DNA from: Candidatus Zhuqueibacterota bacterium
GTDB lineage: Bacteria > Zhuqueibacterota > Zhuqueibacteria > Thermofontimicrobiales > Thermofontimicrobiaceae
Length of the DNA stretch: 64,000 nucleotides
Direction of reading: 5' to 3'
Assembly (NCBI GenBank): GCA_049322915.1
Contig: JBMOPW010000034.1
Location: forward strand, 488,567 to 552,566
Numbering within the stretch: position 1 is the stretch's first letter; the number at the start of each line of letters is the position of its first letter. Position numbers and translations under genes: made by a program. Under the pieces are notes generated by a model that did no database searches, had not been told where the DNA came from, and saw only the letters and a list, made by a program, of their open reading frames with translations. Of this stretch, positions 48,999 through 60,301 are shown one piece after another.

Positions 48999-49203
48999 TT
49001 CGTAACGGCTCAGGTGTCAAATATTTTGAAATGTAACGGAAGCCGCTGAAGCGGCTAAATTCTTTACGCGCATCGGATCTCACCATGCTGAAGCATGGCG
49101 CTGGTTCAACATTGTACCAACACCACGATTTATCGAGGTGCAACCCGCCAGCGAACCAGCCGCTTCAGCGTCTTCTGGAGCGCATGAGTTGAGTCGTTAC
49201 GAA
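48999..49203. mobile_element. MITE/REP-cluster element family B, copy 1
   Basis: TIR TTCGTAACGGCTCA / TGAGTCGTTACGAA; hairpins AGCCGCTGAAGCGGCT, CCATGCTGAAGCATGG, CACCACGATTTATCGAGGTG. Confidence 0.75.
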
Positions 49204-56576: not shown

Positions 56577-57371
56577 ATGGCTCACGAAATGGTCTGCAAA
56601 ACGATCAAGTATTCATTTCAAAATAAAGTTGCCACCATCACGCTCAATCGGCCGGAGATACACAACGCGTTCAACGAAGCGATGATCAGCGAATTGCTCG
56701 ATTTGTATCGGGAGATCGCTGACATGGAGCACATTCGCGTCGTGGTCATCGCCGGCGAAGGCAAGTCGTTCTGCGCCGGCGCGGATCTCAAATGGATGGG
56801 CGACGTCATCAATTATTCGTTCGAGCAAAATCTGAACGAATCGCTCCAGTTGGCCGAGCTCTTTTACACCATGTACACGCTGCCGAAACCGACCATCGCC
56901 AAAGTCAACGGCGCGGCCATCGGCGGCGGGACCGGGCTGGTCGCCGTGAACGACATTGTCATTGCCAGCGATCGCGCCAAATTCAGCCTCAGCGAAGTGA
57001 AGCTGGGATTGGTGCCGGCGTGCATCTCGCCGTACGTGATCAAACGCGTCGGCGAACGGGGCTGCCGCGAATTATTCCTCACCGGCCAGCGCATCGATGC
57101 CGGGCAGGCGCTGAAATTTGGATTGGCCAATCAGGTGGTGCCCGAAGCTGAACTGGATTCGGCCGTGGAAAAATTGATCGCTCAACTCATCACCAGCGGC
57201 CCCAATGCGCTGAAAATTTGCAAGGACTTGCTGGAAAAAGTGCCGCAAATGAGCCTGGACCAGGCCAAGACCTACACCGCCGAATCCATCGCCGCGTTGC
57301 GCATCAGCGACGAAGGCCAGGAGGGCATGAGGGCGTTTTTCGAAAAACGACCGCCGAAGTGGAGTGAATAA
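56577..57371 (+). CDS. liuC: 3-methylglutaconyl-CoA hydratase (crotonase family)
   Basis: HNAFN, FCAGADLKWM, AIGGGTGL, SEVKLGLVPACISPYV; follows mccB. Confidence 0.85.
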   Translation: MAHEMVCKTIKYSFQNKVATITLNRPEIHNAFNEAMISELLDLYREIADMEHIRVVVIAGEGKSFCAGADLKWMGDVINYSFEQNLNESLQLAELFYTMYTLPKPTIAKVNGAAIGGGTGLVAVNDIVIASDRAKFSLSEVKLGLVPACISPYVIKRVGERGCRELFLTGQRIDAGQALKFGLANQVVPEAELDSAVEKLIAQLITSGPNALKICKDLLEKVPQMSLDQAKTYTAESIAALRISDEGQEGMRAFFEKRPPKWSE

Positions 57372-57374
57372 TTT

Positions 57375-57579
57375 GTAACCGATAACAGGGTGAATAAACA
57401 AAAACCGCTGAAGCGGTTTCAGGAGTTCTTTTGAGATGATTATAACACCACAATGAATTGTGGTGTTAGTTCAACTCCCCTTTGAATCAACACCATGATT
57501 CATCATGGTGTTTACTGTATGAATGAAACATGTCCGAAGCCGTTTCAACAGCTACTATCTACATCCCGTGATCGGTTAC
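57375..57579. mobile_element. MITE/REP-cluster element related to family B
   Basis: TIR GTAACCGATAAC / GTGATCGGTTAC; hairpins AACCGCTGAAGCGGTT, AACACCACAATGAATTGTGGTGTT, AACACCATGATTCATCATGGTGTT. Confidence 0.7.
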
Positions 57580-57629
57580 CATAATTTTAATATAAGATTC
57601 AAATTAGAATCATTCTCACGATCATATTG

Positions 57630-58388
57630 TTCGCCGGAGACAAGATGAAACAGATCGACATGCTATTCGACCGGATGGATGCTTGGCGGCACTTCCCGAA
57701 CTACCAGCTTGAACGCCGGGCGGACATCTTCTTTGCGCTGTATCTTCCCGAAGTGCTGGAGGCCACACTTGATTTCCCCGTGAGATCGGAACTGGCTCCG
57801 GAGTTTCCTGTCCGCATCGGCACGATTTACCCCACCATCCCCATCGATAAGTCATACAAAATCGACTACGTCGCCTTGTCGGTTGCCGCCGACAAGGCCG
57901 TTCTCGTGGAACTGAAGACGGAAGGGCTTTCTCGCAGACCAGAACAGGACAAGTACCTGTTGGCGGCGCAGAAGGTTGGACTGCCCGCGCTGCTCGGAGG
58001 ACTGCTGGACATCTTCAGGGCGACCAATGCGAAACGGAAGTATTTCTGCCTTCTCCAGCATCTCGAAAGCATGGGACTGCTTCGCATCCCCATGCAGGTG
58101 AAGGACATCATGGCCGGGGGTGCCCTTCAGGGCGCGACCGACGGCTCGCGCCAGATCGAAATCACAGCCAAGACAACTGAAACCCTGATTGTGTACGTGC
58201 AACCGAATGGGAACGGCCCGGACATCATCTCATTCCGGAAATTCGCGGATGTTGTCCGACGGCATGATGATCCAGTGTCTCAACGGTTTGCCGTGTCGCT
58301 GTGCGAGTGGGCAGAGATTCAAGCGGGAGAGAAGCACCGGCGAACCAGCACCTGAACGGTACGGCTTCGCCGCCCGTTAGGCGCGGCG
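57630..58388 (+). mobile_element. Integron gene cassette; no integrase in window
   Basis: Begins G|TTCGCCGG (57629-57637), the exact complement of CCGGCGAAC (58337-58345); ends at the G|TT of attC. Confidence 0.8.
57645..58355 (+). CDS. Cassette-encoded hypothetical protein with PD-(D/E)XK-like motif
   Basis: PEFP...KIDYV...LVELKT; GGAG RBS directly after the core site; stop codon lies inside attC. Confidence 0.75.
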   Translation: MKQIDMLFDRMDAWRHFPNYQLERRADIFFALYLPEVLEATLDFPVRSELAPEFPVRIGTIYPTIPIDKSYKIDYVALSVAADKAVLVELKTEGLSRRPEQDKYLLAAQKVGLPALLGGLLDIFRATNAKRKYFCLLQHLESMGLLRIPMQVKDIMAGGALQGATDGSRQIEITAKTTETLIVYVQPNGNGPDIISFRKFADVVRRHDDPVSQRFAVSLCEWAEIQAGEKHRRTST

Positions 58389-58394
58389 TTATAC
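58339..58394 (+). other. attC recombination site
   Basis: R'' GGCGAAC; L'' CACCT(G)AACGG pairs with L' CCGTTAGGCG leaving one extrahelical base; CGGC-TTC-GCCG terminal hairpin; R' GTTATAC; 56 bp. Confidence 0.8.
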
Positions 58395-58529
58395 CATATA
58401 TTTTTAGTATACAATTAACCCTACAACGTCATTTAGTAAATTTATCACAATATGTTGAGTTTTTCATCTATCAAAAATACAACGATAAAAAATCTATGTG
58501 ACGTAGTAGGGTTAAGTTGGAATGGAATC

Positions 58530-58719
58530 CTGGACTCACTGAAAGAAGCAACTATTGAAACGATTAAACGATTAAACGATTACCGGATGGTTGCTCAATT
58601 GAAGATATCATGTTTGAAATCAATTTCATTGCTCGGGTAAAGAAAGGCCTTAAGGAGCCGAGCAGGGAAATCTGATTACAATAGAAGAACTTTTAAAAAG
58701 AGTGGAACTTCAAACGTGA
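58530..58719 (+). pseudogene. Decayed small antitoxin-like gene
   Basis: Removing one copy of the triple 8-mer AAACGATT (58558-58581) and adding 1 nt near 58656 gives xDSLKEATIETIKRLPDGCSIEDIMFEINFIARVKKGLKxAEQGNLITIEELLKRVELQT; no ATG start. Confidence 0.55.
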
Positions 58720-58801
58720 TAGATTACATGAACTTCCATCGTATTATTTTATTTTAAAATTGAAAAACCAAAGATAGAAAAATAAAATCGGACGGAAAAA
58801 A

Positions 58802-60301
58802 ATGTTCAAAAAAATTCTCATTGCCAATCGTGGCGAAATTGCTGTGCGCGTGATGAAAGCGTGTCAGGAACTGGGCATTAAAACCATTGCAGTGTATTCG
58901 GAAGCGGATGAAAAAGCGCTGCACGTGCAGCTTGCCGACGAAGCCGTCCTTCTGGGGCCGCCGCCGCCGCTGGAAAGCTACCTCAACATCGATAAGGTGA
59001 TTGCCGCTGCTCACGAGCGGGGCGCTGACGCCATCCATCCCGGCTACGGATTTTTGGCCGAGAATTCGAAATTTGCCGAACGCTGCGAGCAGGAAGGCAT
59101 TGCCTTCATTGGCCCCGGTTCCCGGTCCATGGCCCTGTTGGGTGATAAAATCCGCTCGCGGCAAACCATGGCGGCCGCAGGCATCCCCATCATCCCGGGC
59201 ATGCATCAGCGCGTGGACAGTCTCCAACAGTTGCGCAGCGAGGCCGAGAAAATAGGCTACCCGGTTCTGATCAAAGCGTCGGCCGGCGGCGGCGGGAAAG
59301 GCATGCGCGTTGTTCGTTCTCCCGAAGAATTGAAGGATGCCATGGAAGCCGGCATGCGCGAGGCCAAATCCGCTTTTGGCGATGAATCGGTTTATCTGGA
59401 AAAATATATCGAGCAGCCGCGCCACGTGGAATTCCAGGTCATCGCCGACCAGCACGGCCATGTCGTGCATCTCTTCGAACGGGAGTGCTCGATTCAGCGC
59501 CGCCATCAAAAGATTGTCGAAGAGTCCCCCTCGGTCGCGCTGGATGCGACGCTGCGCAATGCCATGGGCGAGACCGCCAAACGGGTGATTCAGCAGAGCA
59601 ATTACACCAATGCCGGCACTGTGGAATTTCTGCTCGACAGAAACAAGAATTTCTATTTTCTGGAAGTGAACGCCCGTATCCAGGTCGAGCACCCGGTCAC
59701 GGAGTTGGTGACTGGCATCGATCTGGTGAAACTGCAAATCCGCATCGCGGCCGGCGAACCGCTGCCGTTCACACAGGAGGATTTGAAGCAAAAAGGTCAC
59801 GCCATCGAGTGCCGAATTTATGCGGAAGATCCGGAGAACAATTTTCTGCCGTCGCTGGGAACCATCCATTTTTGCCAGGAACCGACCGGGCCGTGGATCC
59901 GCAACGATTCCGGCATTTTCTCAGGCATCGAGGTATCTATGTTTTACGACCCCATTCTGGCGAAGCTCATTGTGTGGGGAGAGAACCGCAACGACGCCAT
60001 TCAGCGCATGAAGATGGCCCTGGAAAATTATATCATTCTGGGGATCAAAACCCAGATCCCATTTCTGAAGCAGGTCATCGACCATGACCAGTTCCGGCAG
60101 GGCAATACGACGACTGACTTTCTCCAGAAATTTTTCCCGAATTGGCAATTGGAAACGCCATCCGAAGAGGAGCGGAATCTGGCTCTGGCCGCGGCAGCAA
60201 TTTATCGAATGAATAAAAAAAGCCCGGTATCGGCCAGTGGAAAAATGAAGCACGAATCTCCCTGGACGACCACCGGCGCATGGGAAATACTAAAATCATG
60301 A
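58802..60301 (+). CDS. Biotin carboxylase subunit (MCC-associated)
   Basis: MFKKILIANRGEIA, GGGGKGMR, RIQVEHPVTE. Confidence 0.92.
   Translation: MFKKILIANRGEIAVRVMKACQELGIKTIAVYSEADEKALHVQLADEAVLLGPPPPLESYLNIDKVIAAAHERGADAIHPGYGFLAENSKFAERCEQEGIAFIGPGSRSMALLGDKIRSRQTMAAAGIPIIPGMHQRVDSLQQLRSEAEKIGYPVLIKASAGGGGKGMRVVRSPEELKDAMEAGMREAKSAFGDESVYLEKYIEQPRHVEFQVIADQHGHVVHLFERECSIQRRHQKIVEESPSVALDATLRNAMGETAKRVIQQSNYTNAGTVEFLLDRNKNFYFLEVNARIQVEHPVTELVTGIDLVKLQIRIAAGEPLPFTQEDLKQKGHAIECRIYAEDPENNFLPSLGTIHFCQEPTGPWIRNDSGIFSGIEVSMFYDPILAKLIVWGENRNDAIQRMKMALENYIILGIKTQIPFLKQVIDHDQFRQGNTTTDFLQKFFPNWQLETPSEEERNLALAAAAIYRMNKKSPVSASGKMKHESPWTTTGAWEILKS

Follow-up and report, generated by a model that had tools for sequence, protein, structure and literature searches.

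A probable lone integron cassette with a nuclease-fold cargo in a carboxylase gene cluster of Candidatus Zhuqueibacterota

The cassette and its attC site

We have analysed a stretch of 64 kb (the window; coordinates count from its first letter) on contig JBMOPW010000034.1 of a Candidatus Zhuqueibacterota bacterium, assembly GCA_049322915.1. It contains an operon for leucine degradation, the methylcrotonyl-CoA carboxylase gene cluster, assigned by Pfam, in which a liuC-like gene and the biotin carboxylase gene accC are separated by a spacer of 1,430 bp. This spacer is mostly AT-rich, and a single segment of it, at 52-58% G+C, contains one open reading frame (ORF), 57645-58355. The segment from 57630 to 58388 is very probably a complete and lone integron cassette, a so-called SALIN (single attC lacking integron integrase), inserted at a genomic GTT site. 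The element is a new example of an already described class, that of SALINs and attG insertions. Its parts are as follows.

57630-58388, + strand: probable integron gene cassette, 759 bp, beginning with the TT that follows the crossover point and ending with the G of the R' GTT; occurs once in the genome
57636-57639, + strand: Shine-Dalgarno GGAG inside the cassette, 5 nt before the ATG; GGAG/GAGG is kept there in homologous cassettes
57645-58355, + strand: ORF P0001, 236 aa; ATG at 57645, 16 nt after G57629; TGA stop 58353-58355 within attC
58339-58394, + strand: attC, 56 bp; R'' 58339-58345, L'' 58351-58359, loop 58360-58373, L' 58374-58381, R' 58388-58394

There is no second ORF in the cassette, and the product of the one present, a protein of 236 aa, is referred to as P0001 in what follows. 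The attC site is laid out as R'' GGCGAAC, L'' CCTGAACGG, the loop, L' CCGTTAGG and R' GTTATAC, with the crossover point between G58388 and T58389, and both cassette junctions read G|TT. The cassette start GTTCGCCGG (57629-57637) has its exact reverse complement in CCGGCGAAC (58337-58345), as expected of a cassette that was once circular. A preliminary description of this DNA had proposed such a cassette, with an ORF beginning 16 nt after G57629 and a stop codon inside a 56-bp attC, and all of these coordinates are correct. The complementarity of nine bases that it had claimed between the R'' side and the cassette start is exact, and the non-canonical core that it had pointed out, GTTCGCC instead of GTTRRRY, is indeed present; the abstract of Frumerie et al. 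is consistent with such a core.

When the bottom strand of the 56-mer is folded alone and unconstrained as DNA, it forms one imperfect hairpin of -13.6 kcal/mol with a single bulge on the 3' arm. The base in this bulge is complementary to G58354, which stands in the middle of the TGA stop codon inside L'', and corresponds to the extrahelical base that had been proposed for the L box. The attCs behind homologs of P0001 at the loci L005, L006, L003, L043 and L045 take the same hairpin shape.

Several observations weigh against the cassette reading at this level. The extrahelical base of a classical attC is a G, whereas the bulged base on the bottom strand is a C here. Adding 3-4 flanking bases on each side allows a competing fold to win, and the z-score is only -1.5. 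Because of this rival hairpin and the unremarkable energy, folding by itself would not settle the identity of the site. Likewise, an inverted match of 9 nt is unremarkable when taken alone, since 33 inverted pairs were found in 1.6 kb.

The decisive support for the predicted attC is comparative and comes from a covariance model of foreign attC sites. This model, R1, was built from 11 attC sites behind homologs in other organisms, with the window excluded (alignment A4). Pairs hold in 78.9% of the cells of its alignment, a value that none of 500 shuffles reached, and 9 of the 14 pairs display double-sided changes. Run unfiltered over the 64-kb window, R1 recovers 58339-58394 end to end with 47.2 bits (E 2.2e-10), and the runner-up among the 21 window matches listed has 16.6 bits. 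A second model, R2, made from 50 attC matches in the fetched loci described below, scores the window attC at 44 bits. Among these 50 sites as aligned, 10 have a C at position 4 of R' and 34 a G as the bulged base of the top strand; the alignment is biased towards the model by which its sites were collected. That the bottom strand folds as an attC, and that a model of foreign attCs recognises the site, agrees with what had been expected of a genuine cassette.

Two further alignments were dropped, one made with MAFFT from 8 attCs, long ones among them (A1), which was not structure-consistent, and an alignment of three sequences (A3), in which the window was one column out of register.

Neither R1 nor R2 found a second significant attC in the 64-kb window, and the absence of an upstream attC that had been stated earlier is thereby borne out. 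A weak attC-like match at 49150-49202, which starts with AGCGAACCAG and lies about 8.4-9 kb upstream, reaches 16.6-17.6 bits (window E 0.03-0.04); its genome-wide E is 3.1, and it is treated as a chance match.

Homologous cassettes and cassette ends

P0001 belongs to a large family. A word-indexed search found 742 relatives at E<=0.001 among 1,500 candidates scored, the 120 best listed having 67-93% identity, and an exhaustive search returned 1,145 representative clusters (at least 1,145 at 50% identity) from many bacterial phyla as well as archaea. We fetched the loci of 16 genome and 38 metagenome homologs. Twelve with a partial gene match were left out (L018, L046, L057, L058, L061, L062, L065-L067, L069-L071), as was L041, which has too little downstream DNA, and 41 loci were counted.

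A GTTNNNN lies 15-26 nt before the start codon in 18 of these 41 loci and has its exact reverse complement at the stop codon. The two halves covary, the pairs being GTTCGCC/GGCGAAC, GTTCGCT/AGCGAAC, GTTCGAT/ATCGAAC and GTTAGAT/ATCTAAC. A near match of the core complement was seen by eye in at least L039, L068 and L052. At L045, the homolog is the first cassette and stands divergently beside an integron integrase, IntI (351 bits against a curated cut-off of 265). Across the 60 sources searched, R1 finds 50 attC matches altogether, and a locus frequently has several of them. Cassette arrays that include homologs are present at L005, L006, L009 and L036, and L003 also has several attC matches. 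The expectation that homologs should be cassette-borne thus holds for this part of the family. The remaining 23 loci have no exact complement, among them Chlorobium-type, archaeal and several planctomycete homologs (54-64% identity), and the family therefore exists outside cassettes, too.

The ends of the cassette can be read from the points at which related sequences part. In L035, L036 and L046, the gene and its attC are shared, and divergence sets in directly after the R' GTT (GTTGGGT, GTTAGGC and GTTCGAC). On the upstream side, the window, L003, L035, L036, L043 and L064 become alike exactly at the GTT. A point against a straightforward history is that the window attC is unlike the attCs of its closest protein relatives (L003, L035), and gene and attC therefore do not have one simple shared history.

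We also compared contigs of four public sequencing runs with 57200-58900, the runs X2-X4 being used only for contigs that bridge the ends of the cassette or break off there. Contigs from two sediment metagenomes that extend further upstream match the window from 57629/57630 onwards (records 17, 18, 19, 25), and the match of record 25 continues to 58333 with 40 differences. Almost the same attC, with 1-2 differences, turns up in a cave run and in a sediment run without linkage to this gene (records 12, 13, 26). The copies in records 13 and 26 end at 58390, the last T of the GTT, the third ends at 58379, and the text beyond differs. In the run that contains 92% of the words of the stretch, the cassette contig has a depth of 67.5, and its flanks have 60-62.

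Some homologs display arrangements of their own. One Desulfosarcinaceae genome carries two copies on two contigs (L008 and L009), each 64% identical to P0001. Both have a GTTCGAT core, though with different attCs and neighbours: one copy belongs to an array, and near the other there are IS1182 and IS110 transposases. In two longer family members, P0030 (358 aa) and P0172 (350 aa), the nuclease part is followed by DUF6504 or a glyoxalase domain, and both look like read-through fusions into a neighbouring cassette. The only other longer forms found are two proteins of 427-429 aa with no Pfam match.

Host genome, flanking DNA and the origin of the insertion

The host genome comprises 6.25 Mb and is 96% complete, and the closest named relatives of the carboxyltransferase next to the spacer are from candidate division KSB1 (83-87% identity). 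Neither the window nor the genome as a whole yielded an integron integrase, in keeping with the preliminary description, in which none was visible. The best matches to TIGR02249 have 79 and 66 bits against a cut-off of 265, which is no higher than the scores of ordinary Xer-type recombinases in control genomes. Among 40 relatives, 14 have an integron integrase above the cut-off, including 3 of 13 from the same family, and integron machinery is therefore common in the clade. In the same-genus genome G001, liuC (86% nucleotide identity) and accC (81%) are 235 bp apart, with neither a cassette nor an attC between them. By protein search, a homolog of P0001 is present in one of the 40 relatives (G023, a partial match of 37% identity) and in none of the same family. 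A gene carried vertically at this locus by relatives, which would have spoken against a cassette, was accordingly not found.

Genome-wide scans with R1 and R2 scored 150 of about 1,600-1,800 first-look candidates, such that the counts are lower bounds, which is a weakness of our interpretation. They show that the cassette, which had been described as solitary, is so at its locus and not in the genome: R2 finds at least three other dispersed attC loci, and in addition three weaker matches.

C19:90457-90515 (L074 1501-1555), - strand: attC, 51.9 bits with R2
C28:32879-32936 (L078 1501-1558), - strand: attC, 42.1 bits with R2; canonical GTCTAAC...GTTAGGC
C14:539137-539208 (L075 1501-1572): attC, 32.7 bits with R2; GCCTAAC...GTTACCC

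The site on C19 follows an ORF of 261 aa with a receiver-domain-like N-terminus; a GTTGGGG lies 9 nt before its ATG, and the attC has R'' CCCCAAC and R' GTTAGCT. The site on C28 follows an ORF of 264 aa, and no exact complementary core was seen upstream of it. At the C14 locus, a second and longer attC was recognised by eye about 700 bp upstream (L075 ~675-787, ending in GTTCGGC), and the two bracket two small ORFs for membrane-protein-like products; this would be a two-site attC cluster without an integrase. A weaker attC-like match, C19:87390-87449, lies 3 kb from the C19 site.

Outside the cassette, the spacer and its borders contain the following.

56577-57371, + strand: liuC-like enoyl-CoA hydratase gene, upstream of the spacer (Pfam ECH_1, 209 bits)
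57375-57579, unstranded: repeat A, about 205 bp, resembling a miniature inverted-repeat transposable element (MITE-like); 18-nt terminal inverted repeats 57375-57392 / 57562-57579
57580-57629, unstranded: left flank, AT-rich and unique in the genome by BLAST; ends in G57629, i.e., the left target half ...ATATTG|
58389-58413, unstranded: right flank, unique in the genome by BLAST; right target half |TTATAC...
58414-58515, unstranded: MITE-like repeat B, about 102 bp, palindromic and unrelated to repeat A; arms 58415-58446 / 58484-58515, 32 nt
58539-58707, + strand: frameshifted antitoxin remnant of a ParE-type toxin-antitoxin pair, downstream of the cassette, found by tblastn
58802-60301, + strand: biotin carboxylase subunit gene (accC), downstream of the spacer (Pfam CPSase_L_D2, Biotin_carb_N, Biotin_carb_C)

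Repeat A has two internal palindromes, and its copies are found on at least five other contigs of the same genome and, within the same family and order, in many further genomes. Repeat B is very abundant, with 189 BLAST matches in its own genome and a very high contig depth in run X1. The antitoxin remnant was recognised with a 71-aa protein of G013 (L025:980-1195), which matches 58539-58707 in three frames with 71-79% identity (tblastn E 3e-15). G013 has an intact pair at the same position, consisting of this antitoxin gene and one for a ParE toxin (L025:1183-1482; PF05016, 73 bits), and no remnant of the toxin was found in the window. Across the family, the liuC-accC spacer varies from about 25 bp to about 2.1 kb, and in G009 (L026:352-1440) and G013 (L025:1-948), which belong to two other genera, it contains an ORF of 362 aa without a Pfam family. 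The spacer is thus dispensable and has been colonised repeatedly by accessory DNA, as the MITE-like repeats, the toxin-antitoxin remnant, the 362-aa ORFs and the variable length indicate. A scan of 57200-58900 for promoters and terminators gave counts not above those of shuffled sequences (3 vs 2.1 and 3 vs 2.2).

At one frame break of the antitoxin remnant, a 9-nt unit, AAACGATTA, overlaps itself three times with a spacing of 8 nt (58558-58582). The 362-aa ORF of the G009 and G013 spacers was considered as a relative of P0001, its D...ELE motif resembling that of P0001 only locally, and was rejected (hhalign probability 3.8%).

If the segment is a cassette, a circular molecule with its attC bottom strand folded would have been recombined by an integrase acting in trans or lost since. 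Its partner would have been a double-stranded genomic 5'-GTT-3' site of the attG type, ...ATATTG|TTATAC..., in the AT-rich spacer between liuC and accC. The uninterrupted spacer would have read ...ATATTGTTATAC..., and insertion would have left the G|TT junctions on both sides. As the cassette is co-oriented with the operon and has its own ribosome-binding site, it might be expressed by read-through. A search for the empty target does not help this reading: when the flanks were compared by BLAST with the rest of the genome and with the spacers of G001, G007, G009, G011 and G013, only chance words were found. The spacers of the relatives are too diverged, such that the pre-insertion sequence would have to be read from the two junctions only.

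This course of events corresponds to what Loot et al. describe (bioRxiv 10.1101/2022.09.11.507474). In this preprint, SALINs are defined and 3,400 of them are counted in 2,469 RefSeq genomes; integrases were shown experimentally to insert cassettes into double-stranded genomic attG sites with a GWT consensus, and cassettes inserted there can be expressed and excised. Like the SALINs in that account, the element in the window consists of one coding sequence and one attC, and lacks an integrase as well as any further significant att site within 9 kb. Its G|TT junctions fit the GWT consensus, and it is intergenic, in an orientation that would allow transcription from a host promoter. More than one such site is present in the genome, as in 622 of the 2,469 SALIN genomes. 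The element differs from the SALINs reported there in that the host is an uncultured, KSB1-like organism and not a proteobacterium, that the empty site was not recovered, and that the element is known from sequence alone; furthermore, the core is GTTCGCC and not GTTRRRY, and the bulged base is a C on the bottom strand. A comparison can also be made with complete integrons and with CALINs (attC-site clusters that have no integron integrase) as treated by IntegronFinder (Cury et al. 2016, PMC4889954). The attC is of the same kind (R''/L''/L'/R', AAC...GTT), and homologs occur in arrays and, at L045, beside IntI. A CALIN, though, comprises a minimum of two attC sites, and 431 single sites were set aside in that work as possibly false, whereas the single site here is validated by homology. 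The proposal that a lone cassette entered a secondary site is supported by the foreign-attC model, the cassette-borne homologs and the 235-bp spacer of G001.

Other histories have to be set against this one. It is improbable that the integrase acted in another genome and that the whole block 57580-58413, cassette and flanks together, arrived here or was lost as one piece, e.g., by recombination with foreign DNA into which the cassette had been inserted before. A single X1 contig does join 57579 to 58413, skipping 833 bases that make up the cassette and both unique flanks, and the joint is not explained by another locus, since no assembled copy of repeat A is followed by repeat B; the lack of an integrase in the genome would fit as well. 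However, this one contig has 20 letters on its shorter side, below the limit for a trusted joint, and both sides are high-copy repeats. The depth of the cassette (67.5) equals that of its flanks (60-62), and homologous recombination between the unrelated repeats A and B is not expected. Either an artefact of the repeats or a minority allele may account for the joint. Even less probable, in our view, is that the cassette is the last survivor of a local integron or CALIN whose integrase and other cassettes were deleted. Such decay would be in keeping with the integrase-less attC loci on C19, C28 and C14, the last with its second site seen by eye, with the integrases of 14 of the 40 relatives, and with the loss of intI as one accepted origin of integrase-less cassettes (PMC4889954). 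Yet the operon is conserved and the same-genus spacer of 235 bp has no attC, and the genome yielded no integrase remnant above 79 bits. The 50 nt to the left of the cassette are unique and harbor neither an attC nor an attI-like hairpin, and at its left junction a plain G|TT stands in AT-rich surroundings, which is what attG insertion predicts.

Hardly credible, finally, is that no mobile element is involved and that a vertically inherited gene merely ends in a terminator or chance hairpin that shares 9 nt with its 5' leader. It is true that inverted matches of this length are common in 1.6 kb, and that with short flanks the fold of minimum free energy is a CGGCGAA...TTCGCCG hairpin across the stop codon. 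This hairpin is not followed by a T-run, though, and the terminator scan was empty there. The covariance-model match (E 2e-10), the covariation of start and R'' complement in 18 of 41 loci, the likeness to foreign DNA that starts and stops at the G|TT points, and the absence of the gene from 39 of 40 relatives all speak against it.

Insertion of a lone cassette at an attG-type site therefore remains our preferred explanation. It would make the locus a clean natural case of a cassette that has left the integron system and settled in a housekeeping operon of an integrase-less genome, in a poorly known phylum. The at least three further dispersed attC loci, together with the integrases of the relatives, suggest that cassettes spread through these lineages beyond integrons. 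The fact that a single attC was validated here by homology and not by a score threshold also bears on the question of how many discarded predictions of single attCs are real.

The cargo protein

P0001 has no match in Pfam, NCBIfam, PHROGs or PADLOC (for the last, PADLOC-DB 2.0, 0 families at E up to 1), and a PHROGs search of 97 relatives gave nothing informative, with at most 2 members per family. A profile search of the PDB with P0001 found nothing below E 0.58, and the ESM Atlas placed it among unnamed clusters, the nearest named families being RE_HindVP (0.82) and PDDEXK_18 (0.79), below the level of trust. In the alignment of the 97 sequences, E23, R25, D27, P52, E53, P55, D74, E89, L90, K91, T92 and F215 are invariant. 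Pairwise ratios of nonsynonymous to synonymous substitution rates against eight homologs are 0.06-0.12, pairs with L042 (synonymous changes saturated) and L044 (misaligned) being left out, and the cargo gene is under purifying selection.

The AlphaFold (AF2) model of P0001 has a predicted local distance difference test score of 95.9 and a predicted template modelling score of 0.91. Its elements follow the order of an alpha-beta-beta-beta-alpha-beta core (H22-42, E46-57, E70-79, E84-90, helices, E179-186). In the model, D74 lies on the second strand (E70-79) and E89-x-K91 at the end of the third (E84-90); the N-terminal helix carries the ERRxD motif, and a helical insertion spans about 99-170. 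A Foldseek search with the model returned nothing at E<=0.001, its best match being the E. coli Shedu protein SduA (8ps4_A, E 0.01, probability 0.82). A structure search independent of Foldseek gave AF1548 (Z 7.6), a NucS-type protein (Z 7.4) and the nuclease domain of SduA (Z 6.5). The neighbours with Z 5-7.6 are almost all PD-(D/E)XK proteins, including Card1/Can2, TnsA, type I/II/IV restriction enzymes, VRR-NUC and Hjc, and a library of viral structures gave the same picture. The cargo, as modelled, is a PD-(D/E)XK-fold protein whose nuclease-type active site, with the predicted catalytic triad D74 / E89-x-K91, is intact. This upholds, at the level of fold and motif, the PD-(D/E)XK-like character that had been noted before. 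From fold and motif, P0001 is most likely a Mg-dependent DNA nuclease. On the other side of the balance, no structural match reaches Z 8 or a Foldseek E of 0.001 and none stands out, and a Z below 8 can reflect a shared fold alone.

The family is distinct from any named one. With SduA (DUF4263/SduA_C), P0001 shares the PD-(D/E)XK core, aligned over 151 residues of the nuclease domain, but it matches neither SduA_C nor the PADLOC Shedu models, lacks an N-terminal sensor domain, and has 236 aa compared with about 400; the likeness is at the superfamily level only. Similarly, the AF1548-type structure 1y88 aligns over 100 residues with a root-mean-square deviation of 3.6 and the NucS/EndoMS-type structure 2vld over 89 residues with a deviation of 2.7. 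There is no sequence relation to either, the catalytic core alone aligns, and the insertion 99-170 has no counterpart. Weak matches to known families among the 97 relatives were to SduA_C in 11 (best E 1.6e-4), HSDR_N_2 in 11 and VRR_NUC in 7. PADLOC likewise gave only weak matches over these relatives, the commonest being PDLC04824 (PDC-S02) with 6 members and a best E of 2.3e-4.

With respect to function, the surroundings of homologs outside cassettes are of interest. In the Chlorobium-type loci L060 and L016, which represent one lineage, the homolog directly follows the type I gene hsdR. At L037 it is found beside dcm, a gene without assignment and vsr, and at L014 near an HNH endonuclease gene and vsr. 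It lies behind a PDDEXK_13/REase-ARP gene at L044, and beside the gene of a Schlafen/AlbA_2 ATPase and a serine recombinase at L011. According to a preprint (bioRxiv 10.64898/2026.03.17.712381), integron cassettes are known to encode phage-defence systems; it cites Kieffer et al. 2025 and Darracq et al. 2025. The present cassette, small, single-gene and promoterless with a nuclease-type fold, is of the cargo class in which screens of this sort have turned up defence genes. As far as this citing text describes them, those cassettes come from Vibrio and mobile integrons and not from sediment lineages. Stand-alone defence against foreign DNA is, on the basis of the neighbour pattern, the patchy spread across phyla and the published finding that defence genes are frequent in cassettes, the single most likely role of the cargo, though we put it forward tentatively and at somewhat less than an even chance. 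An anti-phage nuclease encoded by a single gene, as the preliminary description had proposed, is a plausible candidate, for which the restriction or defence genes near several non-cassette homologs speak. Other roles of a nuclease are, taken together, about as likely. With a methylase missing from the cassette, a restriction enzyme of the classical type II is unlikely, and a modification-dependent or otherwise self-sparing mode of defence would be the likeliest. Unlike in type II restriction-modification, there is no cognate methyltransferase; the dcm gene at L037 and the adenine methylase gene at L036, the latter two cassettes away from the homolog, are not fixed partners.

There is nearly an even chance that the cassette is real and that its cargo serves another purpose, be it repair or recombination, as a selfish or addictive nuclease, or as a non-catalytic DNA-binding protein, and is carried incidentally. 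The non-cassette homologs at L007, L010 and L013 have metabolic or housekeeping neighbours, and the neighbours of L050, L051, L055, L056 and L063 have no Pfam match. Among the best structural neighbours are enzymes of repair and resolution, namely NucS-type 2vld (Z 7.4), Hjc, VRR-NUC and Bax1, the database searches assigned P0001 to no defence family, PADLOC included, and the cassette contains neither a methylase nor an immunity partner. All of this counts against a defence function. In its favour, the homolog is found at restriction or defence loci in five independent contexts outside cassettes, and the weak matches to SduA_C (11/97), HSDR_N_2 (11/97) and PDLC04824 (6/97) point in the same direction. 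The patchy distribution, crossing phyla at 70-94% identity, also fits an accessory gene of the conflict type better than a housekeeping gene.

A wider and more speculative proposal, which we consider possible but doubtful, is that P0001 stands for a large and unnamed group of nucleases, reduced to the PD-(D/E)XK type without partners, which would act as one-gene anti-phage or anti-plasmid systems and rank among the more promiscuous integron cargoes in sediment communities. The liuC-accC spacer of this KSB1-like family would then be a small hot spot for accessory DNA (cassette, ParDE pair, MITEs). If this were true, the cargo could be, e.g., a modification-dependent restriction enzyme or a sensor-less Shedu-like nuclease. 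As a strongly conserved, widely transferred and unannotated nuclease-fold protein, P0001 may reasonably be counted among the candidates for new defence functions carried out by a single gene.

The same genome also encodes a divergent full-length paralogue of P0001 (G000:C28:64712-65326; L002:1501-2115). The attC models found no site at this locus, which adjoins an IS200-type Y1 transposase gene. The paralogue is 33% identical to P0001 and has kept the ERRAD, PEFP, D and ELKT motifs.

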